From Hormiphora californensis (taxonomy: Eukaryota; Animalia; Ctenophora): a stretch of 64,000 bases of DNA. Made by a program: the position numbers and the translations under genes. The stretch is taken from the NCBI GenBank assembly GCA_020137815.1, contig CM035353.1, positions 248,001-312,000 on the forward strand, given 5' to 3'. The notes beneath the pieces were generated by a model. That model was not told where the DNA came from and searched no databases. It was given only the letters and a program-made list of their open reading frames with translations. Positions 476 through 59,946 of the stretch are shown here, one piece after another; within the stretch, counting starts at the first letter, position 1; each line of letters starts with the position of its first letter.

Positions 476-24899
<24,424 letters not shown>

Positions 24900-36729: not shown

Positions 36730-36984
36730 GAAGAGAAGTAGAGACAGAGAGCGAGAGAGAGAGAAGGAAGCGAGAGCTAGATCTTCTCCTCGAAGCTGCG
36801 GAGTCTTCGCTCCTCTACTCTCTTCCTCTCGTCTCTCTCTAAAAAGTAGGATATCGTCGGGTCTCTGCTTTCGCTCGGTCTCTCTCTGTTCTCTGCAAAC
36901 TATCTCTGATCTCATCTACCCGCCCCCCTCAAGCACACCTTTCTCGCCTCAGGAAAAATTAATGTACCCACCTTACCCCGCCCT

Positions 36985-38035: not shown

Positions 38036-39887
38036 GAGGTTTTTGTATCGGCTCTCACTACACAGTGTGTGTGTGTGTGTGTGTATCTGTGTATCTATGT
38101 GTGTGTGTGTGAGGAAGATAATCACCTAAGGACCTGGCTTGTAGCAAGTGGTAGGAGAGAAAGGCTGAGAGAGAAAGGCAGAGAAGAGAAGAAGAGAGAG
38201 AGACGGAGAAGCAGAGAGAGAGAGAGGGAAGAGGAGAGAGAGATGGGAGAGAGAGTAGAGAGAAGAGAAGACGAGAGGAGCGAGAGAGAGACGAGAGAGA
38301 GAAAGAGAGAGAGAAGAGAGATGAGAGAGAGAGAGAGAGAGAGAGAAAGAGGAGAGAGCGATGAGAGAGAGAGGAGAGAGAGAGAGAGAGACGATAGAGA
38401 GAGAGAGAGAGAGCAAGCGGGAAGGCAGAGAGAGAGAAAGAGAGCCAGGGGGAAAGGCAGTGAGAGAGAGAGAGAGAAGGAGAGCCAGGGGGAAAGATAG
38501 ATAGGGAAACGCTGTGGGTACATTACAGAGAAAAATGGCTTACCTTACTCTCGTTAATTAAGCTCCTATATTTCAAGAAACTTTAAAATAAGCAACTTTT
38601 TTCTAAGAAACCACAAGAGTAAGCAATAAAAAACTAAACGAATTTCTCGTTTGTTGAGAAACTTAAGAAGTTAGTTGTTTCCTATTTTGTTGGGGTGTCT
38701 CTAAATTTTGGTATTATGAAACAACTCCTCTGCGCTATATTAGCTGACGTAATATAATAACAGGGATGACTTCGTAACCAAACATACATTGATCACCACA
38801 CCCGGCGCATTGGGGACGGGAACTGACCAGTTGTAGCCCAGGCGTGACCGAGGGGGATTCAGGAGGAACCACAGCAACCCTATTGATAACGTATCTTATT
38901 GGGTAAGGTAGTACGTGGACATAAATATCGGTCAATAGATATATACACAGGTAGCATAGCGCCTAGATGGTATAATCACACTGATAAGAAGGAAAACGAG
39001 AAGGGAATATCAACTTTTATGAGACTAGCACACCCATTGGGGCTTTTTGATAATCCACCCGGCTTCGCCGGGCGGTTCTTTTCGCCACTTTCAACGTCAA
39101 TAACACGGTTGCCATGGCAACTGAATTGGTAACTATGGGGACTGGAATGTTAAAGGTCATTCGAAAATATTAACAAACTTCCACTGGAAGTTCAAACAGT
39201 GTTAATAACAGCTTTACAGCTGAGGTTCGTTACGTTGCATTTCGTTTCACTTTTGCTTGTCTCAGACACCAAAAAGGGCTATTTTCCTCAATAAAATGCA
39301 ACTCAAATCTGTTTCTAGTTCTCATTTCCATCACACATGACCTCCCAGTTACCACTGAACCGTCTCCCGGGCCTGGCCTGGTCTCATTACTAAATTACAG
39401 CTACGTTTTTGTCCAATATTACCCCCCGCCCCACCCCCACCCACCCTCCCCCACCCACCTCTCCCAATATAGCGGACATTGCAAAACACCACACTACATA
39501 GACAATCCTTGTGTTTTGGTGCACTAAGTCGCTTATCGCGTGTAACAACTAACAAATGTTCTTATCTATCTCATCCGAATGGTCTTCTAGAACATTTTAC
39601 ACTCTACACTGCTACAATCTGCCCAACCCCTTGTTTGTGTTTGATCGTCTTCGTTTCCGTTTATCTTTATCACCATTGGAAATGTTTACACCTCTCATCT
39701 CATCACCAACAACATCACGGTACCAATCATCCATCAAGGTCGTAAGTTCACCTGTCCGTATTGTTTGTTCATTTATTGTGTACAGTTGATATTGTGAATG
39801 TAATTGAATATTCAATAATTAAGAGTAAGACAAGACATAGCTTGAGAGTGTGCCCCAGACAGACCAACATACGATAAATATCAAACC

Positions 39888-41081: not shown

Positions 41082-41826
41082 CTAATCGGACACAATCGAA
41101 CAGGCACAGGAATTCTTAGAAAGTCTGGAAACGGCAGCGGCTGCAGTTGGTCTTCACCTGAATGAAGGGAAGACTAAGTTTATGGCTACTGGTATAGAGG
41201 AACCTTCCCTCGTTAGCTCTACGGGAAACTATCTAGAACAAGTGGAAGATTTCGTTTACCTTGGTGCCCACCTTAAATCGACGGAGAAGGATTTTAACAT
41301 TAGGAAGGCTAAGGCCTGGGCAGCCTGTCATAGACTCAAAGGAATATGGAAAACTGACCTGAGAAGGAGCATTAAGGTAAACCTGTTCCGTACTACTGTA
41401 GAGGCTATTCTATTATACGGCGCTGAAACGTGGACCCTTACATCTACTATGGAGAAACAATTGGATGGCTGTTATAGTAGGATGCTACGCATGGCGCTTG
41501 GCATCAACTGGTGGGATAGGGTCTCTAATGAGGAAGTCTTCCAGAATGTCCCCAGAGTTTCTGAGACTGTGAGGACTCGTAGACTTAGGCTGGCTGGACA
41601 TGTCCACAGGCACGAGGAGCTAACAGCTCACCAACTGCTGTTTTGGGAACCTGATAGGGGCTCTAGAAGCCGGGGTAGACCCAAGAAAACCTATATTAAC
41701 CAGCTCAGGGAGGATACTGGCCTATCTAATGATGGCGATATCAAGAGGCTAATGGAAGATCGTGTGCTGTGGCGGACCGAACTGACTGCTCGGACAATGA
41801 AGCCGCCTTAAGTAAGTAAGTAAGTA
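41082..41826 (+). mobile_element. 5'-truncated RTE-clade LINE (RT C-terminal part)
   Basis: GLHLNEGKTKFM, EQVEDFVYLGA, ILLYGAETWTLT, RRLRLAGHV and RSRGRPKKTY motifs. The element ends in a (TAAG)n tail, typical of RTE. Confidence 0.9.
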
Positions 41827-43030: not shown

Positions 43031-43809
43031 CAGAAAAACTTCCTGGGTTCAAGGAAAACCTTGGTATGAAGGAATTCTATGACAGACCACCGGTGTGTGG
43101 CTATATGACGGTCCCTAATGAGTTTCGAGAGGCAGAAAGGAAGATGTACTGGTGTACTTTCTTTGTACATTTTCAAGAGCTTGGATGTCTGAGATTTTTG
43201 AAGAGTCCCATAGTGCACAGCAATACTCGAGTTTACTCCGTTTATCCAATCGATATGAAACTTAGTCAGTATGTGCATCTTGATGTCCTTTGGCCAGGGG
43301 TTCCCAGGAAACGGATTGGCAATATGAGAGTTGACTGGAGTTCTTAAAATTTCACGAAGTTTGAAGTTTTTCGTAGATTTTGGGGAAAATTGGGGGGGGA
43401 GGCCAATATCGGCCTTGAAATAAAATATGTAATAAATTATGCAGCATAAATCATTTGAATCAATTTATAATTGTGGAGTTAGTCCATACGATATAGATAT
43501 TCATCAGGGTCACTCGCAGCCGTCTTGCCCGGGCGCCGTTACGATCTGGGTGTTTGGAGGCCTGTTTACAGGTGCGCGCTGCCAAAAAAGTTGATTCACT
43601 AAAATGGCTCTAACCGCCAAACCACTCAACCGTTTTGGCTGATTCAAAGTTTATCTGGTAGGGAATGTCAAGGCCTAACCCCAACCCAAACCCCAACCCT
43701 AACCCTACTTTAGCCCTAACCCTAAAAAACCGTTTGTCAGCACTCCCAAAACACCCAGATTTTAACGCTGGCCGTCTTGCCCCTACCCCTTCCCCGAATC
43801 GGGGCCCCC

Positions 43810-44126
43810 GATGTCCCCTGATTGATTCAGTTATTGAGCGAACCATTGCAAATGATAGGCGCAGTCTGAGATATCGAACACAATCCTGTTTGGTATAGCC
43901 GGTTTTAGTGGATTTTCTGTTGGCCAGCTGTTTTAGAGTGTTCTTGAATTCTCGACCCAGTCCACCCGATGTTGACATGACAAGTGGAGTAAACACCGCC
44001 TTTTCAAGAAGAAGAACTCGTTGCAGATAAGCTTTCTTCTTCTCAGTTTCATGCTTCTCATACGTCTTCTGGATGCTCTGGTTTGCATTGGACTTTACCC
44101 TTGGATTAAATATCCTTACGTCAAAA
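43810..44126 (-). pseudogene. Restriction-like endonuclease C-terminal fragment of a CRE-type non-LTR retrotransposon
   Basis: FDVRIFNP...HETEKKKAYLQRV...FTPLVMSTSGGLG...RLRLSFAMVRS...IRG matches the pattern I recognise for the CRE-clade RLE domain. Confidence 0.7.
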
Positions 44127-44446
44127 TAATAATACAAATACAAATACAAATATACATTTATTGTCCGCTTTTCATTGTTCATATTTTAAAGAACAACACG
44201 AGTTCTGTTAGGTCTTGACTACTTGCATCACTTGGTGCGGACTTCGTCTCACTAACTCTCGTTTCAAAAGCGGTTAGTTCTATACCAAGGATTTCCAGAT
44301 GTTATTTCAAGATGATATTTTTCTGTAGGAGAACCAAGGAGCGGGAGAGAAGTCATACTCGTTGTAGCCTGCATCTCACCACACTGGCTGTACTTCTATA
44401 AGTAAAGCCCATCACACTCCACTGCACCACACCATACCGACTGTAC

Positions 44447-45116
44447 TGTAGTATCGGTGGTCAAAGGGCTGGTCGTCTAAAGCCGAGGTTCGTACCTGGT
44501 CAGACGCGATGACAGACGAGGTGAAGAGGTGTCGAGGTGAAGAGGTGAAGAGGTGTAGAGATGTAGAGATGTAGAGGTGTAGGGATGTAAATCGAGGGGA
44601 TTACCGTTGTCGGAGGTGACAGGTATTGTAGGTTGTAGTGTTGAAGGTTGTAAGGGTGGATGTAGAAGGGTTTTGTGAAGTTGTATTTATCAAAATAAAC
44701 GAACGGTTTTTGGGGTAACAAAACAAAAGGTAAAGCGTAAAACTTAGAAGTGAAGGCGGAGTTTGTTGTGATGATTAATATCTTTTCGCCTTCCCATCGT
44801 CATGCCCATTGGCTTTAGCCAATTAGGAATGCCGATGATCAAGTGCGGTTGTTCTGAGTTGTTCTGACTAGTTCTGACTAGTTCTGAGTAGTTCTGAGTT
44901 GTTCTGACTAGTTCTGACTAGTTCTGAGTAGTTCTGAGCTGTACTGACGTTATATAATAGCTGTTCTGTCTCTATGCTCTCTAGTTCTCTGTGGTTACAT
45001 AGCAACAGAGGGAGAGAGAGAGAGAGAGAGAGAGCAATAACGATTAACAGCTAGAGGTATAGAGAACTACTGATATATATCTCTCTGGGCTCTCACTATC
45101 AGCCCCATATAGTACA
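44447..45116 (-). repeat. 3' LTR (670 bp)
   Basis: Direct repeat of 59278-59946 (about 9 substitutions and 1 indel by eye). Contains a 10-bp gttctgacta tandem array at 44851-44940. Confidence 0.95.
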
Positions 45117-45133
45117 TCTCACCCCCCCCCTTT
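45117..45133 (-). other. Polypurine tract (plus-strand primer site)
   Basis: AAAGGGGGGGGGTGAGA on the - strand, directly 5' of the 3' LTR. Confidence 0.85.
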
Positions 45134-45324
45134 ATAAAGAAAGGGTGATTATCACAAACAAATCCTGTACACGTCTCACTGTGATCATAATAATCTATAG
45201 CGACAAAAGTGTTCAAAAAATTTTGATAGATAGTAAATTCTCTTTCTCGTATCTATTGTATCATACCACAAATTACTATGGGTCTTAAATCATTACCACG
45301 TATCTTTACTATCTTTTGCTTGAC

Positions 45325-45669
45325 ATGTCTCGCTTAATGCTGTCTTCCTATGAACTCAGCAAACTAGCAACATGTTTCTACCATATCTATGGTCTGGAGA
45401 GGACACACTTTATAAAGTCGATCCTCTCACCGCTACTACTCCAGCACATTGCGAGGAGCTGTATAATTAACGTCGCGGACCAAAATATACACCGAGTTAA
45501 GCAGATATTTCGTAACTTCTGGTATAGGCGGTCCTGGAATACGATCGCCCCCGACGGTTTAAACCCTCGTGGCGATCGTTATAGGTCGCTATTTAATAAC
45601 AAGGACTACTCCAGGAGACTGATTTATATGCCGGATGTTCTGGTGAACTTTCCTGCAATTCCAAATTAA
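45325..45669 (+). CDS. Putative antisense accessory ORF (114 aa), unknown function
   Basis: ATG-initiated, non-repetitive ORF next to the 3' LTR, followed by T-rich sequence. No recognisable motif. Confidence 0.35.
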   Translation: MSRLMLSSYELSKLATCFYHIYGLERTHFIKSILSPLLLQHIARSCIINVADQNIHRVKQIFRNFWYRRSWNTIAPDGLNPRGDRYRSLFNNKDYSRRLIYMPDVLVNFPAIPN

Positions 45670-46240
45670 TGGACCCCATTTTTCGAGACTAAGATTTTAT
45701 TTTGTAATTTTCTATTTATTTTTCTCTTATTGTACTCCTTTTTTCAACATTTTCTATCAGCTTCAGCGTGTTACTTTTAACGGGTACTCTACCCCCCGTT
45801 AATTACAGTTTGATGGTCTCGTATGTCCAAATGTGTCAATATTATTTATTGTTTTTGAAAAAAAAAATTTTTGTGTTTAATTTAGAGTTTTCGGGTGCCA
45901 CTGCAAGGTAAGTAACGACTCTAGTTTTCGGGTACTTACGGCACTAATTGTCTTTTCTATTTTCAGATAATTTTGTTTGGACGAGGACCATCTTACTCTC
46001 TATACTAAGGTATTTAAAATAGAAAGACTCTCTATTCGGTCGAGAGTTCTTAATTAGACTCTGGGTTCTGTTCAGAGTTCTTGCTATTTCCCCGTCTAAT
46101 GGCCGTTCAGAGTATTTGTGGAGTGCACTTGTAACCGATAATGTGGTGGTAGTTGCCGGAAACCCACAGCTGGAGCAATTAGCCAGGACCCGAAATAGCC
46201 TGGAAGTGGACCATTAAATTACGTTGGTTTATCTGAGAGC

Positions 46241-46855
46241 TTATTGGTCAGTTCTCCTGTTTAACCTCCTTCGCTGACACTGCGTAATATTTCTCTGTCT
46301 TCTGAGCTTGGTTACTGCAGTTCGTATCTCGTTAGGCAGTGTGAGGTTGATGCTCTCTTCCACTTCGGCCTTAGATTTGTCCAAGGTGGTGATATTGACA
46401 TCTCCATTCCTGACTTGGTGATGTAGTACTAGGGCTAGTTGTGACACTTTTCGCCTTGTACTGTTCCCCATTATCTGGTGTCTGGTTAACAGGCGTTTTG
46501 AGATTTCTGTGCAGGTGTGAATTGTGTCGTCCTTCTCACTCGTTGTAAGTTCACCATACACCGTGTCATTTAGCCCTTTACACCATATCTTTGTGATTTT
46601 CCTGGCGACCCTTATGTACTTTCTCACTAGATTTGCCACTGTGATTGTTTCCATCTTAGCGAGATATCTGGTGATGATTTCTGTTTTTGTCTCGCTATAC
46701 GTTGTTGTCCAGTGGGCGATGTTGAATCCGGCCTCTATCCCGCTTTCCAAAATTTCTCCGAGGATGAGATCTATGTATCCCTGGGAATTTGGCCATGTCT
46801 GGTCCAAGCAGGCCATAAGAAAGGCCGCGATATACCGGTACTTGGTGTACTCCAT
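46241..46855 (-). CDS. Orphan accessory protein of the LTR element (204 aa, Arg-rich C-terminus)
   Basis: Open ORF downstream of env2. The ATG at 46855 directly follows TTTCAG, and the protein ends KLRRQRNITQCQRRRLNRRTDQ. Confidence 0.7.
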   Translation of the reverse strand: MEYTKYRYIAAFLMACLDQTWPNSQGYIDLILGEILESGIEAGFNIAHWTTTYSETKTEIITRYLAKMETITVANLVRKYIRVARKITKIWCKGLNDTVYGELTTSEKDDTIHTCTEISKRLLTRHQIMGNSTRRKVSQLALVLHHQVRNGDVNITTLDKSKAEVEESINLTLPNEIRTAVTKLRRQRNITQCQRRRLNRRTDQ

Positions 46856-47270
46856 CTGAAATGTTTTTACTGGTTGTGTGTTGGCTTGTGTAGACGGTGC
46901 GTGTTTCAAGTCCCGACGGACGGACACGTGTTTTAAGTCTCGTCAGACGGGGTACGTAATGAAATGCCTCGCCAGGCTGATCTGTGTTTTGTTGGTCTCA
47001 GCAGACCTGTGTAGCGTTCACCGTTGATTAACCGGTATGACTGAGGTCTTATACGCCATCCCATTCATAATTACAACACGACAATTCTTAAATAATTTAC
47101 AGTTCCCATAAACTGTGACGTTTGTCGGTCTGTCTTGTCATTTTAGGTTTATTTGGGGACCTTTACTGTCGAAAAAAAAAAAATTTTATTTCCTACTATT
47201 AGTATAATTTTGTATATCTATTTTTTTTCTTTCTTTTCTTGTGACTATATTATTTTTTTTTTTTAATTAA

Positions 47271-49829
47271 TTATTTATCTAGGTTTTGAATTAGATGTGA
47301 TAACCTACTTTGTGCATTTTCTGGTGTTATTTCAGCAGTGCTCCTAGTTCTAGCTCGTAGTCCTGATGACGAGGGAGCTTCTACTAGGTTGGATATATTT
47401 GGTGTGCTGAATGTTCTTTGTTGTTCTTGCACTTCTGAATGTACTAATTCATGTAGGTCATCATTTAGTTTTTCATACATTATATTTTCGGTGAGTTGTG
47501 TATGTCGTCCCGGGGCTGGTGGTGCCCTTGTGGGTTTAGTTATTGAACTCGCGTTAAGTAATGTGGCTGGTGTGCTAAATCTTACTTCCTTTGTGAGTTC
47601 TGGCATGCTTTGGAACCTGTTTTCTCTGTGTGTTATTAGAGTCTCAGGTCTAGGTGGTAGTGGCCTTTCTCGGTGAAGCATCTCTATTTCTTCGTTGTGT
47701 TGTGTTGTGATATTTTGTCCTGATGTGGTGTTGGGTGGATGTGTTGTGTTACTATCTGTGGCTGTTCTTATTACCGATTGTACTTGTTTCTTATATTTCC
47801 TTAATCTGTAACATTGTCTGGCTACTATCAGACCGATAATTGTGAGTACGGAGAGAGCAACGGCTGCTACTCCTGCCCATTTGACGACTTCATCTTGCCA
47901 ATTACCTGGTAAGGAATGCTTTTTGAACTCGTCAAATGACTTTTTCATTTCATGTAGTGTTACTTCCTGTTTATCTGTAATTTTAACTAGTGTGCTTATG
48001 TTGCGCCTCACAATTCCGGATGCGGTACGCGCTACGAATTCTTCCCAGGGAACAATTTCCGGCATTTCCATCTCAATTTGTATAGTTGGTTCTTGGATGG
48101 ATTGCAGGACTCTGTTTCCCAGGACTACCATGGAATATTTGCTCCAGGGTAGGAATGCAGTGCCTTGTTTGCTCATCTGAACTTTATCTAGAGTGGTGAT
48201 GGTACTAGTTGCTTTCATGGCACTGATTTCGTGTTCACTATAAATTAGGACCCCTGCTGTGGTGAAGCTTGCTCTATCCACGCTCTCCACTAGCCTAATT
48301 TCGCAGTCGCCTTGTTTGTTAAGACAAGGGACTGCTACATGTTCTTTAGTAGATTTATCTGTTGATGGCCTGCTACAGATTTTTAGACTATTCGACCGTG
48401 AGTAGCAATTATCATTAATGATCTGGTAAAATTGGTCCCTAACCATATAAACTTCTTGTGGTAGATCCAGTTGGACACAGGTTCCGTTGTTCCTGAATCC
48501 AACTTGTTCCACCGCATATCTATTGTAAATTGAGGACTGTCTTAGTCCGGGTACTGTGAGCACAAAATGGAATTTGAATGAGTGGTCGGTTCTGACCATG
48601 CCAACGAGTGTTAATTTGCCTTGGGTCAGTATGCTCTCCGGCTTCTCTTGGTAAATGGTGCCAGAGAACCTACTGTCTTGTACCAACTCTCTTATGTGTT
48701 CCATGGTGAGTACTTCAGGAAGTACCCCCATGGTAAGTTCTGATTTGAGGACACCTGACAAAATGGTACGTATTTGGTTTTTCCACTTTGTCATTTGTCG
48801 CTCTCTCACAATTTGATATGCAACCGTGTCAATATCGCACTTTATTGAGTCTAGTTCTTCTTCTAGGACCTTATAAATTTCAACAATTTCTCTATTAAAT
48901 TTCACTTGCTCGTTTAAAAACTTGGTGTTTCCTTCCGCGAACTCACGAAATTGTTGATCTAGTCTCTTGACGTGTTTTCTAGTTTGGGCAGCCTCATACA
49001 TTGTAGCACCCAAACCTAGTAGAGCTGGTATTCCGACTGCTGCCATTATTACCCCCACATAACGTTTTTCTCGAGTGTTTGTGGTGGTAATATTGGTATT
49101 CCCGGTTGTATGGAGTTGGTATGCATCTACTAAATTTTTGTATTGTTTGTGGGAGTTTTCCCAAATTTCGTCGATTTCTCTGGATGTTTCATTTTTAAAG
49201 AATTCGGCCAAAGGTGTTTGTGGTAAATCTAGGTAACCATTGCACATACTGGGCAATTGTGGTTTCATACTTTCAACATCTATTGTCAGACTTTTCACGA
49301 ATCCCGGAATTTTTTGCCAAACTTGATGAAGTTTGACATTGTTTCCGTACAGAATTTTGTAACTGTCTCTTTCAGTATGGCATTTGCCTCCACCACCAAG
49401 AGCTCCTATTGGCTCAATAATTGCCAGGGAACAAAGCATGTTAAAGCATCTTTCCATGCATTTTTCAAAACTTTTGGGATTTCTCTCGTAATGTTCCATC
49501 ATGTGATGGTTTGCTACCAATTGAGGGGCTTTTTGAACTGCCGTGGTTAGCCAGCGATAGTTAGGTCGGCAATGAACGAGGTCTATGTCTCCGTCAGATT
49601 TTCTATTACATTGGAATCTCTTCAAGTCGGGTATGGGTGATGATAAAAATACTGACGCAAAAACACTTTCTGCACCAGCGGCGACATAACCTTGTGGTTT
49701 TAGGACAACTCCGATGTCCTTAAGGACTATAGGATCTAGTTGTAGCTCGAATTGAGCCTGCTGGTTCTCTGCCTCCATAAGGGCCGTGCCCAATAATGGG
49801 AGAATAAGTAGACATATCAGTCTCATCAT
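47271..49829 (-). CDS. env: Env2: class I viral fusion (F-like) glycoprotein
   Basis: 852 aa with signal peptide MMRLICLLILPLLGTA. A furin site REKR (49073-49062) is followed directly by the hydrophobic fusion peptide YVGVIMAAVGIPALLGLGA and a heptad region. It then has a Cys-rich region, a TM (WAGVAAVALSVLTIIGLIVA) and a ~180-aa tail. The layout matches paramyxo/pneumovirus F and baculovirus F/errantivirus Env. Confidence 0.85.
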   Translation of the reverse strand: MMRLICLLILPLLGTALMEAENQQAQFELQLDPIVLKDIGVVLKPQGYVAAGAESVFASVFLSSPIPDLKRFQCNRKSDGDIDLVHCRPNYRWLTTAVQKAPQLVANHHMMEHYERNPKSFEKCMERCFNMLCSLAIIEPIGALGGGGKCHTERDSYKILYGNNVKLHQVWQKIPGFVKSLTIDVESMKPQLPSMCNGYLDLPQTPLAEFFKNETSREIDEIWENSHKQYKNLVDAYQLHTTGNTNITTTNTREKRYVGVIMAAVGIPALLGLGATMYEAAQTRKHVKRLDQQFREFAEGNTKFLNEQVKFNREIVEIYKVLEEELDSIKCDIDTVAYQIVRERQMTKWKNQIRTILSGVLKSELTMGVLPEVLTMEHIRELVQDSRFSGTIYQEKPESILTQGKLTLVGMVRTDHSFKFHFVLTVPGLRQSSIYNRYAVEQVGFRNNGTCVQLDLPQEVYMVRDQFYQIINDNCYSRSNSLKICSRPSTDKSTKEHVAVPCLNKQGDCEIRLVESVDRASFTTAGVLIYSEHEISAMKATSTITTLDKVQMSKQGTAFLPWSKYSMVVLGNRVLQSIQEPTIQIEMEMPEIVPWEEFVARTASGIVRRNISTLVKITDKQEVTLHEMKKSFDEFKKHSLPGNWQDEVVKWAGVAAVALSVLTIIGLIVARQCYRLRKYKKQVQSVIRTATDSNTTHPPNTTSGQNITTQHNEEIEMLHRERPLPPRPETLITHRENRFQSMPELTKEVRFSTPATLLNASSITKPTRAPPAPGRHTQLTENIMYEKLNDDLHELVHSEVQEQQRTFSTPNISNLVEAPSSSGLRARTRSTAEITPENAQSRLSHLIQNLDK

Positions 49830-51510
49830 AGGGGTCTTCTCGGGGTACCTCTGAAAAGTTTGGACGTTGACGACGCATAAAGATTCGTTCTGTGTTTTGA
49901 GGGTTTCTAACTGTAATTTTAATGTTGCTCATTAAATTTCCAACTTTTCCAAAATTTATGTGACTTATTGCCCAAATTAGCCCACACACTGCACCAGTAC
50001 GGGTTACCCAAAGAAGTAATCCGTCTACTATATGATACCATTTTGAACTACTGAATCCTGGTAAAACGATTTCAGGAGTGTCTAAATTTTGATTTTGGTC
50101 CCGTTCTATGTCGTTGATCCTATTTTCCATGTACTCTAGTGCAGCTTTTGACGGATCTGTGTGTGATATGTCTTTATTATCGTATATGAACTCGTCAGGA
50201 AAGTGGAATAGGTCATCAAATGTGTGTGTCTTAAATATGGGTATTTCGAGAGCATTGTTTGTAACTATGACATGTGGTGTGCTCCCGGGTTGGTAATTGT
50301 ACGTGTTACCATGTAATTCTAAGAATCTATTGATTGATGCTGAACAATTGGTTCGTGTTGATTGGTGATTGATGATATTTGTTTGTGGGTCGATAAAACC
50401 ACTTCTAAAATTTTCTGCTTCATTTCCTTTGTAAACTATCGGCACATCGTAGAAGCATTCATCTGTTTGTCTAAATTCAACGTGGTTGATTGGTCTACAT
50501 GGTGTTACTTGTATTATTCCACCAGTAATGTGGTCACTCTGTGCTATTATATATGGATTATTAAGCATGTTTCTTGCGTATGCGGTAGGGTTCTTTAGAG
50601 CCAGTGCTTTGGTGACATTTATTGTTAACTGTATTGCCTCACATAAATTAGCATATTTTGTTGTTTTCTCAGTCACTACGTCAGACAGGTAATTTAATTT
50701 AGTTAAAAGTTCTTCTCTCACTGCTTCAATGGTAATGGTATTTTCATTGCTGCTAACGGACTTCGGTGTAGTACTTGGGTTACTTATTTTTATTTTGAAG
50801 CCATTAGCGTAGTAATCTTTGTCTAATTTTGGTTTTTCTTGTAGATCTGCGCTGAACCCGATTTCAGCTATAACAATGTGGTTTCCTAGAATAATTGCGG
50901 GGTAGTTGCCAACGAGTAAATGTGCCTTATTTACGTCTAGTTTTGGTTGATAGATAATTGCTTCGTTATTACTAGTTAAACAGTATCCTGTGTTATAATT
51001 TTTGGAACATTTGGTCATATCACCTAGGTTTGATATTGTATTTTCGTTATGTGTTTTTGCTACGTAGCCTTTTTTGATAATACACTCTGTGATTGTGTTT
51101 GTTTTTGTCTTCAACCATTGTGATTCGCATTTCGGTTCTACGTGTCCTAATGTATTGGTTCTTCTGCCTAATGTATCTTCGCATGTCGAGTGGGTGATGT
51201 GCTCTCTATATTTGCTTTCTGGCCAGTAAACTTTTTTATTTGATTTGGTAGTCTCTTTCGACCCGAAAAAATTGTTGGAGACCTTGCACGTCTTTTCTGT
51301 GACTCTCATGGACTTTGCATTTACTCGGTACTCTTTAATGTTTCTTTTCCACAGTGTGACATTGTAGATTGTCGGGTTTGTGTTGTCACATTTAAACGAC
51401 TGTGGTACTTTGAATAATTGTTTGGCGGTTCGGCCATCGCATATCATGGCAGTACTGCTTGCTTCGCCAATCATGACAGCAATCAACACGGCTGATACTA
51501 AGCCCTTCAT
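49720..51510 (-). CDS. env: Env1: class III-like viral glycoprotein (herpes gB/chuvirus G-like)
   Basis: 596 aa from ATG 51510, with signal peptide MKGLVSAVLIAVMIGEASS and a Cys-rich ectodomain. The segment LCE...NPTAYARNML...GGIIQVTPCRPI...RQTDECFYDVPIVY...GFIDPQTNII...RTNC resembles the gB/chuvirus glycoprotein C-terminal ectodomain pattern. A hydrophobic segment lies near the C-terminus. Confidence 0.75.
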   Translation of the reverse strand: MKGLVSAVLIAVMIGEASSTAMICDGRTAKQLFKVPQSFKCDNTNPTIYNVTLWKRNIKEYRVNAKSMRVTEKTCKVSNNFFGSKETTKSNKKVYWPESKYREHITHSTCEDTLGRRTNTLGHVEPKCESQWLKTKTNTITECIIKKGYVAKTHNENTISNLGDMTKCSKNYNTGYCLTSNNEAIIYQPKLDVNKAHLLVGNYPAIILGNHIVIAEIGFSADLQEKPKLDKDYYANGFKIKISNPSTTPKSVSSNENTITIEAVREELLTKLNYLSDVVTEKTTKYANLCEAIQLTINVTKALALKNPTAYARNMLNNPYIIAQSDHITGGIIQVTPCRPINHVEFRQTDECFYDVPIVYKGNEAENFRSGFIDPQTNIINHQSTRTNCSASINRFLELHGNTYNYQPGSTPHVIVTNNALEIPIFKTHTFDDLFHFPDEFIYDNKDISHTDPSKAALEYMENRINDIERDQNQNLDTPEIVLPGFSSSKWYHIVDGLLLWVTRTGAVCGLIWAISHINFGKVGNLMSNIKITVRNPQNTERIFMRRQRPNFSEVPREDPYDETDMSTYSPIIGHGPYGGREPAGSIRATTRSYSP

Positions 51511-52093
51511 CTGAAAAACACAATCGATTGATGACTTTGTTATTTCATGCTCAAACGAGTGATCAATTCGCCTATTCACGAAATAAAGTTTCTCGATGAC
51601 TGTGTGGTCGACCTCTCCAGATGATTTGTGTTGTGTGATATGCGGAGTTCTCTTTAGTGCGGTGTGAAGTGTACCTTATTATTCATGTCAGTGTGGTGTG
51701 ATCTATAGATTATTATTTGTGCCGTTCTACTGTGTTTTGTGTTTGTTCCTTAATTTTACTCGCGTTACCCTTATTCTACCTGTTGTTGTGTGCTTTTTAG
51801 TGACTGGTGTGTACTTAATTGGACTTCTTATTGCTAATTTTTAATGAGGAGAGTGCTCCTCTTTTGCAGCCTTCTTTAGCAAAGGGAGGTCAATTAATTT
51901 TAGAGAAAATTTACTCAGTTTATGTCTGAGTTCTGAGTGTGAGACGAATGTGCTGACAATGAAGGGGATTACTGGCCCACCTTTGCTTCTAGACAAGTTC
52001 TTGACGATTCAAATAAATCATATCTTCCCTTGTCTTATTGCTTTATTTTGTTGTTGACGGTTTATCTTTTTTTTTTTAGCAATTCTCTCTCTA

Positions 52094-52537
52094 ATGGACG
52101 CCAGACAGGAAATCATTCGGCAGGTCCTCTGGGACTCTACCTTGACCTTGGTGGTGGAACGGTTGGGTTGGCCTGTAGACGCCTCAGCCGTTACGTTTTG
52201 TATGGTTGAGGCCCTACTAGCTGGGCATGCTAGACTGGTTTGTTCCCACCGCCTTCGGGATTTGTTGGAGTGCCAGGGGGCTGGTCACCCGACCCCCTTT
52301 TGGTCCGTGATCCCTTCTAGGAACGGGGTGCCGGTGGTCTATTGCCCCTGCTCCCTGTTTAGTTGGGCGATCAACAGGCCGGTCGCCATGGAGGAGTGTC
52401 ATGGGATTCTTCCCTTGACGCACCTCCAATGCGCTATATGTGAGGACACCCCGGAAGACATACCATGGACTTCCTTCTACGCCGACTGTGTTGGGTGTTC
52501 TCTGTGCGAGCGGCCGGGGACGCCTGTTGATCGGTGA
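52094..52537 (+). CDS. Antisense Cys/His-rich protein A (147 aa)
   Basis: GC-rich ORF island in AT-rich spacer, with a poly-T/AG acceptor upstream and AATAAA at ~52592. Paralogous to 52773-53255. Confidence 0.75.
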   Translation: MDARQEIIRQVLWDSTLTLVVERLGWPVDASAVTFCMVEALLAGHARLVCSHRLRDLLECQGAGHPTPFWSVIPSRNGVPVVYCPCSLFSWAINRPVAMEECHGILPLTHLQCAICEDTPEDIPWTSFYADCVGCSLCERPGTPVDR

Positions 52538-52772
52538 TCTCATGTAGGTGGACTTTATGCTTTTATGCTCTTTGTCTTTAATTGTGGCTCTAATAAATTT
52601 TTAAATTTTTCTAGTTTTGTAACGGTCATTTGGTATTCCGCTTGGCTTCAGGGTAAGGTGTGAACCTTGCTATTTGGTTGACACATTACACCCTTTTAGT
52701 CCCCTGTATATTTTCCTATATTCAATTTGTTCTCAATTTATTTCTAACACGTTTTTACTTTTTTAGAACATT

Positions 52773-53255
52773 ATGTCTTTCTTGACTATCGTCGGTGAGC
52801 TCCGGACCGTCTGGGAATTGGACTGTCCCCACGAGCGAATGGTCGCCTGGAACATACGCTTTGACTCGGTAGTGGGGCAGTGCGGGGTTCCCATCAACCC
52901 CGTTACTGTAAGTCGCTGCGACTTACAGTTTATTTTCGACGAGCTGGCACCTCTGATATGCCATCACCGGCTCGTCGAAATACTGTCGTGCCCATTAAAT
53001 GGGCACCCTCAATTTCAGGGAGAGCACTGCCTTTGTGGCTGGTGGCGAGCGGCGGTCTGTGCTCCGGACTGGGTCAGGCCCAATTCAACAGCTCCCTGGC
53101 CCGTCCGGTTCACCCGCTGCAGCTTACACCGCTGCAGGGCGGCTCCCCTTTTGGGGCCGCTATCGATTCGGCATTGGCTTTTCGACCATGAGTTCTGTGG
53201 GGATTGTGCCAACTGCCAGCCACCAACCTCGAGGACTCCGGAGCCCGACCGATAG
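52773..53255 (+). CDS. Antisense Cys/His-rich protein B (160 aa)
   Basis: Shares CxHRLxxxLxCxxxGHP, CxC, CxxC/H and CxxCxxC motifs with protein A. Acceptor ttttttag lies 6 nt before the ATG. Confidence 0.75.
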   Translation: MSFLTIVGELRTVWELDCPHERMVAWNIRFDSVVGQCGVPINPVTVSRCDLQFIFDELAPLICHHRLVEILSCPLNGHPQFQGEHCLCGWWRAAVCAPDWVRPNSTAPWPVRFTRCSLHRCRAAPLLGPLSIRHWLFDHEFCGDCANCQPPTSRTPEPDR

Positions 53256-53451
53256 TGGGTTATTTTTTCTGAATTTTATTATGCATTTTTTCCAATTTGT
53301 TTCATGTTTTTTTTCTAACTTGTTCTTATATTCAATTTTTCAGGGAGGACGGTGAGGGGGGACGGTGAAAGGTCTGCCGAGTGTTTCCAGTAAAGGTCTG
53401 CCGAGGTAATTACTTTTTAAATCATTGTTCCGTATTACCTACTGTTGTAGC

Positions 53452-56400
53452 TTATTTTGGCCCTGACATATCGTAATCTTTTAAATACGGAGGTAATTTT
53501 TTTAGCCTGTTTGACCTACGAAGTACAGGTGGTTCTGTGGTTTGTTCTACTTGTTTATTCTTTTCTTTTTCTGATGTGGCTGTGTGAGGTGTTGTTTTCT
53601 GTGTGACGGTTTCTTTTTTGTTAATGTGTGGTGTCGAGTCGGCTAATGATTCATCATCACTTTCCGAGTGAACGTGTACGTGAATGGCTGGCCTTTCCTC
53701 AACAGTGTCCGTGACACCGTCGATAGTAAGTTTTTCTGCTAAAGCTTCGGGGACAAATTTCATAAGATCGTGGTGTACGACCTTTTGCTTTCCTGATTCT
53801 ATATGTTTGATTAGATAATTATGATCAGATATAATTTTCTCAATTATGTATAATACCTTAAATCTAGATTTGAATTTATTATTAGCCATTTCTTTTGGAG
53901 GCAATGGTACTAGTATGGCTACATGATCACCTATTTTGTACTTAGTAATTTTGGCTGAGCGGTCATAGAACTTCTTAGCTTGCACCTGTTGTGCTTTAAG
54001 ACTTTTTTGTACTTGGCCATAGACTCCTTTCATTTCCCAGTATAAATTATGTGCATAATGACATTCATCTCTGAAGAACTGGGTTGACGTTGTTTCATAA
54101 ATTAGGTCATTTGGTGCTCTAAGTTCTCTACCAAAGAAAAGGTAGTTTGGCGTGTACCCTGTCGCCTGATGTATCGTACCATTGTACGATGATATTGCTA
54201 TGGGGAAATATTTTTCCCATTGATTAGGGTTATTATGCGTCAATTTTGAGAGTATGGCTTTCAAAGTTTTATTAACCCTTTCCACTAAGTTTGTGGCTGG
54301 GTGATAAGGCGTTGTGCGAATCTTGGTGATTCCCAGCAAGCTATAAAAGTTTTGGATGAACTCGGCTCCATCAATTGATGAACCTTGATCACTGAGGACC
54401 TGTTCTGGTACTCCAAAAGGAAGTACGTGAGACATCAAGAACGCTCTGGCTAGTGTCGGGGCTTTAATATCACTAACAATTGCACCTGTGACGTACTTAG
54501 TGAACGCACAGGTACTGAGGAGTATGTGTTTAGTCGCCCCTGAATTCTTTGTTATGGGTCCCATCGTGTCTATGTAGCATCTATAGTTAGGAATATTTCG
54601 CTGTTCGTAAAGTTTCATGACCATTTTGGGTTTCTTATGAAAACCTTTGTTGTGGAAGAAACACTCTTCACACGCTTTAGTGTGTAATGTGATCTCTTCC
54701 GTCATGTTAGGCCACCAAAATTTTAACATAATGGCCCGTTTAGTTTTGAGTATGCCTGGGTGACCTGATTTGTCATGTTTCAACTCCATGATATCTTGTT
54801 TCAGGGTTTGCGGTGTACAGAGGAGCAACCGGAATTTACCGCTGGATTCGCTCATGTACTTAATGGCCACTAGTCCTTGGAGGGTAAGTTGAAGTCTTTT
54901 AAATTTGTTATAGTAAATTTTCAACTCTTTTGTGTAATTTGAGTCGGCTGGTTGTGCGGGACGTTCTTTTTGAACGAGCCATGACCTTACTTCTGACAAA
55001 GACGTATCGTTAATCTGCGCTTGGTATAGAGGTTCATGGTCATGGAACTCTAGTGATATCGGATTCTCAAACGTACCTATCTCTTCTTTTTTCTCTTTAG
55101 TAATTATTTGGATTATCTCTTCTAGATGACTACTGGGCTCATCATCAATCTTTAGATTGATGGCATCTTTAATTAGGCCAATGACTGTCTGTGGTGACTC
55201 TTCTTGCTTTTTAATTGTGTTTTCCCAATATTCCCATAAATCGCCTGATTTCTGGGGTAAATTACGGGAAAGAAAATCTGCTAATTGATTATCTTTTCCG
55301 GGTGTGTGCTCCAATACAAAGTTGTATTCTGATAACTTAATGGACCAACTGAGCAAAAGTCTACATGTGGTTTTGTTAAGATACCCGGATTGTGTGAGTG
55401 ATTTCATATCAGTGAATACTACAAATGGTTCTTGAGCACCGTATACTAGATGATCATATTTCTGTATAGCCCATAAAACAGCTCTCATTTCGAGTTTAAA
55501 ACTTGGCCATTTCTGCTCTGCCGGTGAGAGTACCCTACTCCCGTAACTAATCGGCCTAAAGAACTCTTGACCATTTTGGTCCGTGAATTTGTGAGTTATT
55601 GCACAACCTAATCCTTGAAAGCTGGCATCACACCATAAGTAAAATTTCTTTTTAACGTCAGGCATGACAAGTATGGGCATAGTGGTAAGCTTATTTTTAA
55701 TCATTTCAAAAGCGTGTTGTGCTTCGGGTGTGGCTTTAATGTTGTAACTTGTTCCGGTTAACAAGTCAGTGAGTGGTTTAATTTCGGAAGCACAATTTTG
55801 AAGTAAATTTCGGAACCAATTTATTGCCCCCAAAAAACTCATTAATTTCTTTTTAGTGGTGGGGAATGGGATTTCGCGAACTGCTCTAACTTTTTCTTTG
55901 TCCGCTTCATATCCCTCTTTACTAAGCCATGCACCTAGGAATTTAACTTTTTTCACTAGTAATGAGCATTTGGTGGGTGATATTTTCAAGCCTCCTTGCC
56001 TAATGCAGTCGAATACTTGTTTCAAGTTGATGAGCATCTGATCTGTCGAATCTGTACCTATGAGGATATCATCTAGGTACACTTGTATGTTGTTAGGCAA
56101 ATGCTGAAATATCATGGTTAATGCTTGACAGAAATAACTGGGTGCATTTTTTAGACCAAAGCCAAGGCGGTTCTGCTCGAAGAGACCTACTCCAGGGACA
56201 TTCCATGCTGTTTTGTGTTTATCAGACTCTTTTATGCGAAGGCTCATGTAACCTTTTGTGAGATCGAGGGATGAGTAGTATTCCTTCCCTCCTACATGAG
56301 CAACAACTACGTCGAGAGGCGGTATACTAGAAGTAAATGACTCTGTTTTAGCATTGAGTTGGCGATAATCGGTACATATACGTACGTCATCTGAATCTTT

Positions 56401-57516
56401 TTTCTTGACTATGACTGTGGGTGCACTATAGGCAGATTGGGATGGTTGAATGACCCCTATGTCTAGTAATGCTTGTATTTCCTTGCGAACTTGAGGTAAC
56501 AGATGTATCGGTATGCGTCTGGGAGGCAATGCTACAGGAATATCATCTTTTAAATTAATTTCTGCTTCCAAAATATTAGTGAGCCCTATGTCATATTTGT
56601 GAGATGAGAATATGTCTAAATATTCACTAACTAGTTCTTTAATTTTATTTTTAGTTTCGCTATTAAGGTGTTCGTTAGTGTCGATTTTTAGTTCTCGGAT
56701 AACTTTTGCTAACTTTGTAGTGGGTGAAACTACTTCACTAATGTTCTTAATTGCTTTTTCTACCGGTGTGAGGTATCCGAAGATTGTACCGGCTGGGAAG
56801 AAATATTCAGCCTGCTCATCAGTGTTCTCAAGTGTGATAGGTATCTCGGACTCATTAACATCTACTAAACATGAAGGTGGGTCATCTTTCTCTCTCGGCC
56901 AGAACAATGTACTTGGTGTATATACATATGTGCCACTATTTATGGGACTATCTATTGCACTAGTGTTTAGGCCAATGCACGTGACTGTGTGTGTCTTACC
57001 TATGCCAATATTAGTGTTAGCTTTTGACTTAACAAGAATTGTCTGATCTCGGGCCTTGTGAATGATTATTGGTACTTTATGGGGTCCTTTTCCAAGAGTC
57101 ATATTTGACAAATCTACTACAAGCCCGTTATCTATGAGGAAGTTAGAGCCTAAGACCAAAGGTGCTATTATCTCATCAATGATTATGAAATCAAGGTTGA
57201 ATTTTAGATTGCCTAGTTGTAATGGAACGTTTTTGATGGTCCCTAAAACTCTAAGATTGTGACCCGTCGCACCGATTAATTTGTACTTCGTTGCTTCTAT
57301 ACTACTGGTAGGTATTTGTAATTTATCGAGCATCGATTTAGACATGCAATTAAGCACTGCGCCGCTATCTATTAGTAATTTCGCGTCTTGACTATTGATT
57401 TTCCCTGCCGCGAATAGTGAATTAGTGTGCTTGTCTGCTATTGTTAAAATGGGCGACGCGGGTACAAAGTCACGTGCGGTAGCCTCGGTCGAGGGCCGAG
57501 GCACACTTAGTTTAAA
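53452..57516 (-). CDS. pol: Pol polyprotein (protease, RT, RNase H, integrase), expressed by -1 frameshift
   Basis: Protease LLIDSGA; RT LDLTKGY, FGLKNAP and YLDD; RNase H WCDAS. Integrase has HHCC (H..SGHPG...CEEC) and a D-D-E core (YIDTMGP, SDQGS, VERVN). No stop codons. Confidence 0.97.
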   Translation of the reverse strand, partial: FKLSVPRPSTEATARDFVPASPILTIADKHTNSLFAAGKINSQDAKLLIDSGAVLNCMSKSMLDKLQIPTSSIEATKYKLIGATGHNLRVLGTIKNVPLQLGNLKFNLDFIIIDEIIAPLVLGSNFLIDNGLVVDLSNMTLGKGPHKVPIIIHKARDQTILVKSKANTNIGIGKTHTVTCIGLNTSAIDSPINSGTYVYTPSTLFWPREKDDPPSCLVDVNESEIPITLENTDEQAEYFFPAGTIFGYLTPVEKAIKNISEVVSPTTKLAKVIRELKIDTNEHLNSETKNKIKELVSEYLDIFSSHKYDIGLTNILEAEINLKDDIPVALPPRRIPIHLLPQVRKEIQALLDIGVIQPSQSAYSAPTVIVKKKDSDDVRICTDYRQLNAKTESFTSSIPPLDVVVAHVGGKEYYSSLDLTKGYMSLRIKESDKHKTAWNVPGVGLFEQNRLGFGLKNAPSYFCQALTMIFQHLPNNIQVYLDDILIGTDSTDQMLINLKQVFDCIRQGGLKISPTKCSLLVKKVKFLGAWLSKEGYEADKEKVRAVREIPFPTTKKKLMSFLGAINWFRNLLQNCASEIKPLTDLLTGTSYNIKATPEAQHAFEMIKNKLTTMPILVMPDVKKKFYLWCDASFQGLGCAITHKFTDQNGQEFFRPISYGSRVLSPAEQKWPSFKLEMRAVLWAIQKYDHLVYGAQEPFVVFTDMKSLTQSGYLNKTTCRLLLSWSIKLSEYNFVLEHTPGKDNQLADFLSRNLPQKSGDLWEYWENTIKKQEESPQTVIGLIKDAINLKIDDEPSSHLEEIIQIITKEKKEEIGTFENPISLEFHDHEPLYQAQINDTSLSEVRSWLVQKERPAQPADSNYTKELKIYYNKFKRLQLTLQGLVAIKYMSESSGKFRLLLCTPQTLKQDIMELKHDKSGHPGILKTKRAIMLKFWWPNMTEEITLHTKACEECFFHNKGFHKKPKMVMKLYEQRNIPNYRCYIDTMGPITKNSGATKHILLSTCAFTKYVTGAIVSDIKAPTLARAFLMSHVLPFGVPEQVLSDQGSSIDGAEFIQNFYSLLGITKIRTTPYHPATNLVERVNKTLKAILSKLTHNNPNQWEKYFPIAISSYNGTIHQATGYTPNYLFFGRELRAPNDLIYETTSTQFFRDECHYAHNLYWEMKGVYGQVQKSLKAQQVQAKKFYDRSAKITKYKIGDHVAILVPLPPKEMANNKFKSRFKVLYIIEKIISDHNYLIKHIESGKQKVVHHDLMKFVPEALAEKLTIDGVTDTVEERPAIHVHVHSESDDESLADSTPHINKKETVTQKTTPHTATSEKEKNKQVEQTTEPPVLRRSNRLKKLPPYLKDYDMSGPK
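57482..57516 (-). promoter_or_regulatory. -1 programmed ribosomal frameshift signal
   Basis: T TTA AAC (57516-57510) in the gag frame just before the TAA stop, then a 7-nt spacer and a GCCTCGG/CCGAGGC hairpin. Pol is in the -1 frame. Confidence 0.85.
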
Positions 57517-59015
57517 TCTTGATCCTTGAAGATATTCTCCACCAGAGCCATGTTGTATGTCTTTTCTTGGTCCGGGAAGCCGCTGTTTCCTGGGCCGTCG
57601 TCAATAGCCAGCTGTGCCATGGGTGCCGTTATGGCGTGTTGCATCATATTGATGGGGCGTTGCTGTTGTTGCTGTTGTTGTTGTTGGGCCGCATTGTTGG
57701 GTGCTCGCCAATTACCGGGTGGTGCAGTAGTAGTCTGGTACTGGTTCGGGTTTTGTTTCCACTGGTTTTGAGTGTTCTGGTAATTAGGCTGGTAATTGGG
57801 ACGGTAATTGGGGCGGTAGTTGGGGCGGTAGTTGTCCCTATTGTTGGGACGGTAGTTGTCCCGATTGTTGGGTCGGTAGTTGGGGCGGTTGTCGTTCCTT
57901 CCCCGGTTACCATTGTAGTTGTTTCTCCCCTGGTTATTGTTGTTATTGCCACGGTTGTTGTTGTTATTCCAGCCTCTGCTATTTCCTCCTCTGCTGTTGT
58001 TTCCCTGCTGGTACTGCCTGACCCTTCTCTCTGTTGATCGGCAATCACTGGTCCAGTGCCACCCTCCGCATTTTCGACATGCTGATGGTGGTTGGGTATC
58101 TCGTTGCTGTCGAGTTGGGCACTCCCTGGCGAAGTGTCCATCCTTTCCACATGAGTAGCATTGATTAGATGGCGGTCTTGCAATGACCTTCTCTTTCCCC
58201 GTCAAGTGTGAAACTGGAGCATCTTGGATAGCTAGTACCGGTGGAGGTTGTTCAACTTCCACTGTTGCCGGTATCGGGAGTGTGACGATTCCCTTGTGAG
58301 AGTCGTCATTCTGGGAGCGTAGAAGTAGAGCCTCCTTCAAAGCCAGTTCCTTCTCCATGGTGATTTCAGCAAGTTGATGTTCGGTGATGTCCTTCAAACA
58401 TGAAACTTCAGCGGCTAGTCGCGCGTCACTCAACCCGCTCAAAAAAGCATCTCGCAACATCTTCTGTGTGAACTTCTTCTCCATCGTGCGATCGGCGCGG
58501 GACAGTTCGGGCGTGTCAACGCTGTCAAAATATTTGTCTACTATTTTGACTAATCGTTCGAAAAAATCGAGCGCAGTTTCATCCCGCCCCTGTGTAGCTT
58601 TACGTAACTCTACTTTAGCTGACATTTTTTGTGTTTTTGGAGTAAGAGTTTTAATTATTGTTGGTTTGAGATCTGACCAATCTGCTTTCTGGTCTTCTGT
58701 CAAATCAAGCGCTGCTAGTTTATCTCGGCAGCTCTCAGGCAGGTAAGTGATGAAATTGCTGTACGCCTTTTCATCACTTAGTGAGATGAGTGTTCTATAA
58801 TCATCAAATGTTTTAATGAATTTAGACACACTTTTTCCCAAAACATAGTTAGTCGGCTGTTTCGCTGCTGCGTAACTTGCCGTTAACTCCCTACGATAAT
58901 CGCGGAACTTGGTTTTGACCTGTTCCTCCGAAAATGTAGCATGATGGCTTGTTGCACTAGGGTCTGTTACCCCGGGCAAAATGCCATTTTTATTATCTTT
59001 ACTTTCGTCCCCCAT
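57507..59015 (-). CDS. gag: Gag (capsid, two zinc knuckles, N/Q/R-rich C-terminus)
   Basis: First ATG at 59015 (the frame is open from 59255). Has a major-homology-like segment ATQGRDETALDFFERL and knuckles CYSCGKDGHFAREC and CRKCGGWHWTSDC. Confidence 0.92.
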   Translation of the reverse strand: MGDESKDNKNGILPGVTDPSATSHHATFSEEQVKTKFRDYRRELTASYAAAKQPTNYVLGKSVSKFIKTFDDYRTLISLSDEKAYSNFITYLPESCRDKLAALDLTEDQKADWSDLKPTIIKTLTPKTQKMSAKVELRKATQGRDETALDFFERLVKIVDKYFDSVDTPELSRADRTMEKKFTQKMLRDAFLSGLSDARLAAEVSCLKDITEHQLAEITMEKELALKEALLLRSQNDDSHKGIVTLPIPATVEVEQPPPVLAIQDAPVSHLTGKEKVIARPPSNQCYSCGKDGHFARECPTRQQRDTQPPSACRKCGGWHWTSDCRSTERRVRQYQQGNNSRGGNSRGWNNNNNRGNNNNNQGRNNYNGNRGRNDNRPNYRPNNRDNYRPNNRDNYRPNYRPNYRPNYQPNYQNTQNQWKQNPNQYQTTTAPPGNWRAPNNAAQQQQQQQQQRPINMMQHAITAPMAQLAIDDGPGNSGFPDQEKTYNMALVENIFKDQDLN

Positions 59016-59258
59016 TAGTAAAATTAAATCGTGATAAACTGTTTTATTTACTGTAACTGTGAGTGGGCGATTATTTTGTAACGGTGTTGAAAATTGATCT
59101 GATTCTAATTCTAAACTTAAATTTAGGCTATTTGAGCTAATCGAGAATTCAGAGTCTTCAGAAAGTCTTGTCTGAGATAAATCTGAGTTTTCAGAAAGTC
59201 TTGTCTGATTTTCAAGTTCACGTGGGTCTGAACTTGCTATATTGGCCACACAAAACTA

Positions 59259-59273
59259 CAAGTCACAGCACCA
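59259..59273 (-). other. Primer binding site, tRNA-His-like
   Basis: TGGTGCTGTGACTTG lies 4 nt inside the 5' LTR end. It is complementary to the typical eukaryotic tRNA-His 3' end (TGGTGCCGTGACTCG) with two G:U pairs. Confidence 0.75.
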
Positions 59274-59277
59274 ATTA

Positions 59278-59946
59278 TGTAGTATCGGTGGTCAAAGGGC
59301 TGGTCGTCTAAAGCCGAGGTTCGTACCTGGTCAGACGCGGTGACAGACGAGGTGAAGAGGTGTCGAGGTGAAGAGGTGAAGAGGTGTAGAGATGTAGAGA
59401 TGTAGAGGTGTAGGGGTGTAGATCGAGGGGATTACCGTTGTCGGAGGTGACAGGTATTGTAGGTTGTAGTGTTGAAGGTTGTAAGGGTGGATGTAGAAGG
59501 TTTTTGTGAAGTTGTGTTTATCAAAGTAAACGAACGGTTTTGGGGTAACAAAACAAAAGGTAAATTGTAAAACTTAGAAGTGAAGGCGGAGTTTGTTGTG
59601 ATGATTAATATCTTTTCGCCTTCCCATCGTCATGCCTATTGGCTTTAGCCAATTAGGAATGCCGATGATCAAGTGCGGTTGTTCTGAGTTGTTCTGACTA
59701 GTTCTGACTAGTTCTGAGTAGTTCTGAGTTGTTCTGACTAGTTCTGACTAGTTCTGAGTAGTTCTGAGCTGTACTGACGTTATATAATAGCTGTTCTGTC
59801 TCTATGCTCTCTAGTTCTCTGTGGTTACATAGCAACAGAGGGAGAGAGAGAGAGAGAGAGAGAGCAATAACGATTAACAGCTAGAGGTATAGAGAACTAC
59901 TGATATATATCTCTCTGGGCTCTCACTATCAGCCCCATATAGTACA
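59278..59946 (-). repeat. 5' LTR (669 bp)
   Basis: Direct repeat of 44447-45116. Confidence 0.95.

Follow-up and report, generated by a model that had tools for sequence, protein, structure and literature searches.

The window analysed here, 64,000 nucleotides of the ctenophore Hormiphora californensis (GenBank assembly GCA_020137815.1, contig CM035353.1, positions 248,001 to 312,000), holds on its minus strand (59946-44447) a 15.5-kb Ty3/gypsy-type long terminal repeat (LTR) element that contains gag, pol and two intact env genes. Env1 (49720-51510, minus strand; 596 residues) is predicted to be a class III, gB/chuvirus G-like glycoprotein, and Env2 (47271-49829, minus strand; 852 residues) an F-type class I glycoprotein with an REKR site, a fusion peptide, helical repeats, an anchor and a 180-residue tail. 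As a preliminary description of this DNA had reported, both open reading frames (ORFs) are intact, lie 3' of pol on the sense strand and overlap by 110 nucleotides (36 codons) in different frames. When the interval 46200-52000 was shuffled 500 times, the longest open frame had a mean of 99 codons and a maximum of 199, and a dual-coding test recovered the Env1/Env2 overlap as a run of 36. The env genes share their base bias with pol. Sequence comparison shows Env1 and Env2 to be unrelated (hhalign probability 0.4%), again as had been proposed. Each has a hydrophobic N-terminal segment, which fits the signal peptides claimed for both (on hydropathy only, without a signal-peptide predictor), and a C-terminal hydrophobic segment by the same measure. 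With 13 (Env1) and 15 (Env2) cysteines, or about 2%, the label cysteine-rich was an overstatement. These residues are conserved, however: every aligned relative that covers them has all 12 of the Env1 ectodomain, and 11 of the 13 Env2 positions outside signal and tail are cysteine in all relatives covering them. Identity to relatives is 41-50% in the ectodomains as against 12-26% in the tails, which reveals constraint on each env family. In the partial set of sample-to-sample differences listed, none creates a stop in either env, and those in Env2 comprise 5 synonymous and 4 non-synonymous changes.

In Env2, REKR occupies residues 253-256, a hydrophobic segment (258-276) follows directly and a strong anchor is found at 652-670; the site and its adjoining hydrophobic peptide have counterparts in six of six aligned close relatives. 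The single Env2 sequence had no match in the PDB, and Env2 itself matched no Pfam fusogen family, PF00523 included. Among 1.84 billion representatives searched, 217 relatives were found, and 101 of these, chosen by coverage, went into a profile of 102 sequences. This profile matches the F protein of human parainfluenza virus 3 (1ztm) at E 5.1e-12; of its 116 PDB matches, the top 60 are without exception paramyxo- or pneumovirus F. The predicted monomer (predicted local distance difference test score, pLDDT, 79.9) matches the F proteins of respiratory syncytial virus (RSV), human metapneumovirus and human parainfluenza virus 3; for RSV F the Foldseek E value is 5.6e-14 and the structural comparison gives Z 15.5 over 310 residues at a root-mean-square deviation of 4.8. 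Within the wider family, 11 of 51 proteins match PF00523 at E <= 0.01, four of them at or above the cut-off, and the Atlas matches of Env2 are all class I, with scores of 0.83 or less that serve as a lead only. Together, profile and predicted fold show Env2 to be an F-type class I protein with the paramyxo/pneumovirus F fold, as foreseen, and the cleavage site, fusion peptide, helical repeats and transmembrane anchor ascribed to it are borne out by the motif positions and the model. The F2 part carries an insert (residues ~96-205) that evolves fast, at 13-19% identity versus 41-50% in the core; in the relatives P0005, P0025, P0027, P0030, P0031, P0060 and P0182 this insert matches PAN/Apple families.

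Env1 has an FFG at residues 82-84 and a W at 132, kept in three of three relatives, which we take to be the tips of its fusion loops on the pattern of class III anatomy; its sequence contains no R-X-K/R-R cleavage site. It matches the Pfam family Monjiviricetes_fusion (PF24664) at E 7.1e-18 and 64 bits, well over the cut-off of 27, across residues 288-450 only. Its first Atlas match (0.96) is to the same family, followed by clusters of rhabdovirus G, herpes gB and GP64, and all the Atlas rows listed are class III families. Its single sequence had no PDB match, and a 7-sequence profile reached herpes gB at E 0.08-0.09 only. A close published relative comes from the survey of 'ancient errantiviruses' by Chary and Hayashi (eLife 2026, PMC13524379). 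Domains I-II of Env1 are about 72% identical (142/198, counted by eye) to the ENV of Ctenophora_Tentaculata_Pbac_errantivirus_5, which its authors modelled and classed as HSV/gB type, C1c (PMC13524379). Pfam, the Atlas and this relative thus support the class III membership of Env1; the preliminary assignment as gB/chuvirus G-like holds on these three lines and not on the protein's own predicted model.

The combination could in principle be an assembly chimera, an objection that the preliminary description had itself raised, or an env-only element nested by chance in a gypsy element. Such an origin would fit the missing target-site duplication, the fact that no one contig covers the entire element among the runs examined, and a spacer between pol and Env1 whose ORFs differ in composition and have higher depth. 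The sequencing runs point the other way. Two contigs from another sample and study, one of 3,030 nucleotides in run X5 (48474-51504; 6 other letters, 1 gap) and one of 563 nucleotides in run X6 (49611-50173), bridge the Env1-Env2 overlap, so the chimera objection fails, and in run X1, perhaps the source of the window, overlapping or near-abutting pieces extend from 45088 to 59307 at an even depth of 81-104. The 20 repeat families listed include neither a second LTR pair nor an inner repeat, and the env ORFs overlap. Chimera and nesting are largely refuted and very improbable, and an artefact is unlikely.

The remaining features, all on the minus strand unless stated, are those of a Ty3/gypsy element, with paired TG...CA LTRs, a primer-binding site and a polypurine tract (45117-45135). 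The 5' LTR (59278-59946) has 669 nucleotides and the 3' LTR (44447-45116) 670, and 660 of 670 columns are the same in both. The gag gene (57507-59015; first ATG at 59015, frame open from 59255) encodes a CCHC zinc knuckle (zf-CCHC, E 3.8e-6). Just upstream of its stop lies a TTTAAAC heptamer (57516-57510) with a stem behind it, and pol (53452-57600; 1382 stop-free codons) is in the -1 frame, with protease (DSGA), reverse transcriptase (YLDD), RNase H and integrase (HHCC, D, D, E) in this order and with their catalytic residues. The order itself is common to Ty3/gypsy and BEL/Pao elements, and the set of Pfam families in pol is of the gypsy type. The primer-binding site (59262-59273) is of the tRNA-His type, with 1 mismatch in 12 to the His_GUG 12-mer given in supplementary file 1 of PMC13524379, and the element has the intact gag, pol and env-like fusogen gene between LTRs by which that survey operationally defines errantiviruses.

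Two parts of the element were overlooked earlier. The first is a 1.9-kb spacer between pol and Env1, holding two antisense ORFs on the plus strand, one of 160 residues (52773-53255; T-rich AG at 52766) and one of 147 residues (52094-52537; T-rich AG at 52079). They are Cys/His-rich paralogues (34% over 58 residues, E 9e-10) with no Pfam or PHROG family match, their G+C content is ~58% versus ~41% for the element, and their contigs are covered 2 to 10 times as deeply as the env genes, which makes related copies elsewhere in the genome probable. The second is ORF5 (46241-46855; 204 residues), a fifth sense ORF 3' of Env2, with a basic C-terminus, no hydrophobic segment and no assigned family, which is likely an accessory gene. 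Some 1.1 kb of mostly non-coding DNA, including 45700-46240, separates it from the 3' LTR and contains a 114-residue antisense ORF (45325-45669, plus strand). Outside the element, fragments at 41182-41811 (plus strand) and 43610-44182 (minus strand) resemble the ends of non-LTR retroelement ORFs; ~43530-43775 is highly repeated, with telomere-like repeats in loose ends, and minisatellite arrays with periods of 32, 70 and 29 nucleotides occupy 7600-11200, 17400-19900 and 36900-38100, along with many GA microsatellites. Depth in X1 is 81-104 for contigs of the genes, 65-74 for two contigs of the flanks and 170 for the LTR, which hints at a low copy number, depth being no copy count.

With regard to expression, gag-pol would be made by a -1 frameshift at the TTTAAAC heptamer, and the downstream genes may each have an acceptor of their own. 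The 14.2-kb interior has four sense TTTCAG hexamers, three of which end 0, 21 and 0 nucleotides before the ATGs of Env1, Env2 and ORF5, respectively, the one for Env2 falling within the Env1 coding region; such a placement has a nominal probability of 7e-7, for a motif chosen only once it had been seen. A putative splice donor is present in the 5' LTR at 59328 (motif match only), from which cis-splicing to the TTTCAG acceptors could give a separate mRNA for each downstream ORF. Alternatively, a spliced leader could be trans-spliced onto each of them; trans-splicing is widespread in ctenophore mRNAs, and the leader is found on at least 56% of Hormiphora reads (PMC8527503). By either route, each ORF would have an mRNA of its own. 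Contigs of runs X7 and X8, which are possibly not transcript-only, cover parts of both env genes; no joint is listed and no contig bridges Env1 and Env2 in these two runs, and X9 and X10 contribute one short piece each. An X7 contig ending at 51514, 4 nucleotides from the Env1 ATG and with 30 unaligned letters, was considered as evidence of splicing and rejected, because similar ends of 29-30 letters occur in three other contigs at positions without special features and the site is read through unspliced in an X8 contig.

The env proteins have named close relatives from the ctenophores Pleurobrachia bachei and Mnemiopsis leidyi, which indirectly supports the non-bilaterian host that had been proposed, and the stretch is present in marine sequencing runs. 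No related loci were found in metagenome contigs with the Env2 alignment and P0003, in viral contigs with the Env1 or Env2 alignment, or in phage records with Env1. A second candidate family with both genes emerged from a public assembly. There, members of a class III cluster (P0007), with 43-45% identity to Env1, are spread over six contigs, and an F-type cluster of four members (P0031, P0180, P0181 and P0182), 22-26% identical to Env2, is found on contigs of 91,343, 192,794, 88,484 and 449,631 nucleotides. Matched by size in nucleotides, all four equal contigs of the class III cluster (four of its six), whereas among the 28 F-type clusters looked up none of the 39 other members with a recorded size did so. 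Both genes are more than 99% identical among copies, and both are fragmentary on the 88,484-nucleotide contig. These sequences are most simply read as a multi-copy element of recent origin that carries both genes. The F protein of this second family is 58% identical to P0033, and its class III protein 50% identical to P0022; P0033 and P0008/P0022, on short contigs of differing size, may mark a third dual family. In a quick tree of 61 F proteins with long branches, supported by the Shimodaira-Hasegawa-like approximate likelihood ratio test (SH-aLRT) only, the named proteins of Pleurobrachia and Mnemiopsis group with Env2 in a clade of 13 (SH-aLRT 100), and P0031 belongs to a different clade (99). 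The two families thus have F partners that are not sister to each other, which points to either an old pairing with exchange of the F gene or two origins of the pairing.

This result bears on the possibility that the locus is a snapshot of envelope replacement, in which two env-bearing elements recombined and one env is a passenger being lost. Pairs that arose independently or swapped their F gene would suit such a history, as would the mixed-type clades of the published tree, which suggest recombination (PMC13524379, section 6), the single env listed there for the closest published relative of Env1, the LTRs 1.5% apart, the absent target-site duplication and the predominance of non-synonymous changes in Env1 (4/5). 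A passenger, on the other hand, would hardly be expected to be knit to its neighbour by 36 dual-coding codons, with the putative Env2 acceptor inside the Env1 frame; the env genes have the same base bias as pol, the arrangement is identical in two samples, and both genes seem to be intact in a distant multi-copy family. We regard a replacement in progress as quite unlikely.

We favour instead the view that this is an intact Ty3/gypsy element whose class III Env1 and F-type class I Env2, each likely translated from its own spliced mRNA, are both predicted to be working fusogens and would provide two alternative entry routes, a reading to which we give a probability of about 0.55 from sequence features and predicted structure. 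Env2 would be cut by furin at REKR and perhaps bind cells through the PAN/Apple-like insert in its F2 part, whereas Env1 would need no cleavage and would use its two hydrophobic loops. Both may be kept for different cell types, compartments or stages, for example one for passage from soma to germline and the other for passage between animals in sea water. Two alternative entry proteins are favoured because both keep their fusion motifs, because each type suffices alone in other elements as these are catalogued (PMC13524379), and because in baculoviruses the receptors used by F and by GP64 can differ (PMC4741009). Of the two mechanisms offered in the preliminary description, the two entry machines therefore fit better than attachment plus fusion.

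Several observations weigh against this reading. The predicted Env1 model, built from 7 sequences, is unusable at a pLDDT of 36.8, and the anchor of this protein is weakly hydrophobic (peak 1.56) and contains D and R. The listed differences in Env1, a partial set and a small sample, are 4 non-synonymous versus 1 synonymous and give no support for current purifying selection; near-neutral variation among copies has been reported for a rotifer env as well (PMC5408684). The PAN/Apple match was not found in Env2 itself, though its insert keeps the cysteines, and a general pyrimidine-YAG score places only the Env1 site among the top 15 of 494. In the second family, the two ORFs do not overlap in either order (dual-coding best 4-7 versus a background of 5-6), the F protein is not sister to Env2 in the 61-protein tree, and the genes are brought together by the matching of contig sizes, their adjacency and membership in one LTR element being putative. 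Finally, the flanks GGGTTT and GTACAG do not repeat, so no target-site duplication was found; two insertions may have recombined to give this copy, or its flanks may have changed, a point that bears on the history of the copy and not on the family.

The weak Env1 anchor also belongs to a different account, in which one env would be an attachment, trigger or receptor-blocking protein and the other the fusogen, comparable to GP64 with a remnant F or to HN with F in paramyxoviruses. Paramyxovirus F does require a partner attachment protein, and the recurrence of the pairing in the second family would be in keeping with such a division of labour. Group I alphabaculoviruses, moreover, keep an F homologue that is unable to replace GP64 (PMC4741009). 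Yet Env2 retains its site, peptide, helices and anchor, Env1 retains both loop tips and all its ectodomain cysteines, the PAN-like module in Env2 relatives could bind unaided, and single-env elements of either type are common (PMC13524379). Split roles are thus an unlikely explanation, if one to be taken seriously.

Retroviruses and env-bearing retrotransposons have been described with one fusogen, whereas here genes of class I and class III, both intact, stand in one transcription unit. The element is accordingly a small natural system for asking why a virus would keep two entry machines, a question that baculoviruses also raise, their F gene having decayed once GP64 had arrived. If both fusogens work, it would have two separate ways into the cell, as against the one listed for its catalogued relatives. 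On the gypsy tree, F and gB types are intermingled in a way that implies env swaps, and an element of this kind provides a specific path by which they could occur. It further suggests that env genes are under-counted in the survey of 1,512 elements (PMC13524379). More broadly, and at somewhat less than even odds, the locus may represent a long-lived marine retrovirus-like lineage with two working fusogens of different classes, made from separate spliced or trans-spliced mRNAs, in which the pair was kept through deep divergence and F exchange; dual-env elements would then be the intermediates in F/gB swaps across the gypsy tree, and several one-env catalogue entries would really have two.

Among known systems, the errantiviruses catalogued in that survey come closest, with F-type and gB-type env distributed across animals and one env type assigned to each of the 1,512 elements (1,291 ENV_F and 221 ENV_HSV); nine are ctenophore elements, six of them with an F-type and three with a gB-type env, and the clade 'with both types' consists of different elements (PMC13524379). 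The preliminary picture of known env types was hence out of date, both having been described in ctenophore gypsy elements, one per element. The main text of the survey does not mention a dual or second env, splicing, accessory genes, extra ORFs or a PAN insert, the word PAN in this sense being absent from it, although its figures and deposited sequences may contain more. Pbac_errantivirus_5, which its authors classed as Ty3/gypsy, resembles the present element in having gag-pol and then a gB-type ENV, and differs in being scored as ENV_HSV only, on an 11.3-kb contig without LTRs; the element described here departs from the one-env pattern in having both types. A stretch of 5,000 nucleotides behind pol, which the authors apparently translated, would span all of Env1 and the first 459 codons only of Env2, and a second env may have been missed in the survey because of this cut. 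The length of some listed ctenophore elements (12.1-13.3 kb) was considered as a sign of a second env and rejected, since mollusc rows reach 12.7 kb. In the literature searched, PMC12440569 included, with most subscription journals and Repbase outside its scope, no retroelement with both env classes is described, so that the combination in one element is apparently undescribed, while each half and a close relative of Env1 have already been published. Other retroelements share one half each: the rotifer TelKA elements have a paramyxovirus-like F env, one as described and in another host (PMC5408684), and the mosquito Anakin elements have a chuvirus glycoprotein, likewise one env in another host and in a different LTR superfamily, BEL/Pao (PMC7642597). 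Class III and class I env genes are found in one genome in group I alphabaculoviruses, with GP64 and the F homologue Ac23, and in the betabaculovirus DisaGV, with F and GP64 (PMC4741009). Baculoviruses, however, are large DNA viruses and not retroelements. The F protein of group I alphabaculoviruses is a remnant unable to replace GP64, an arrangement that Env2 does not match at the sequence level since neither its cleavage site nor its fusion peptide has been lost, and the reads of DisaGV show deletions in F (PMC4741009), whereas the env genes of the Hormiphora element are adjacent and overlapping.

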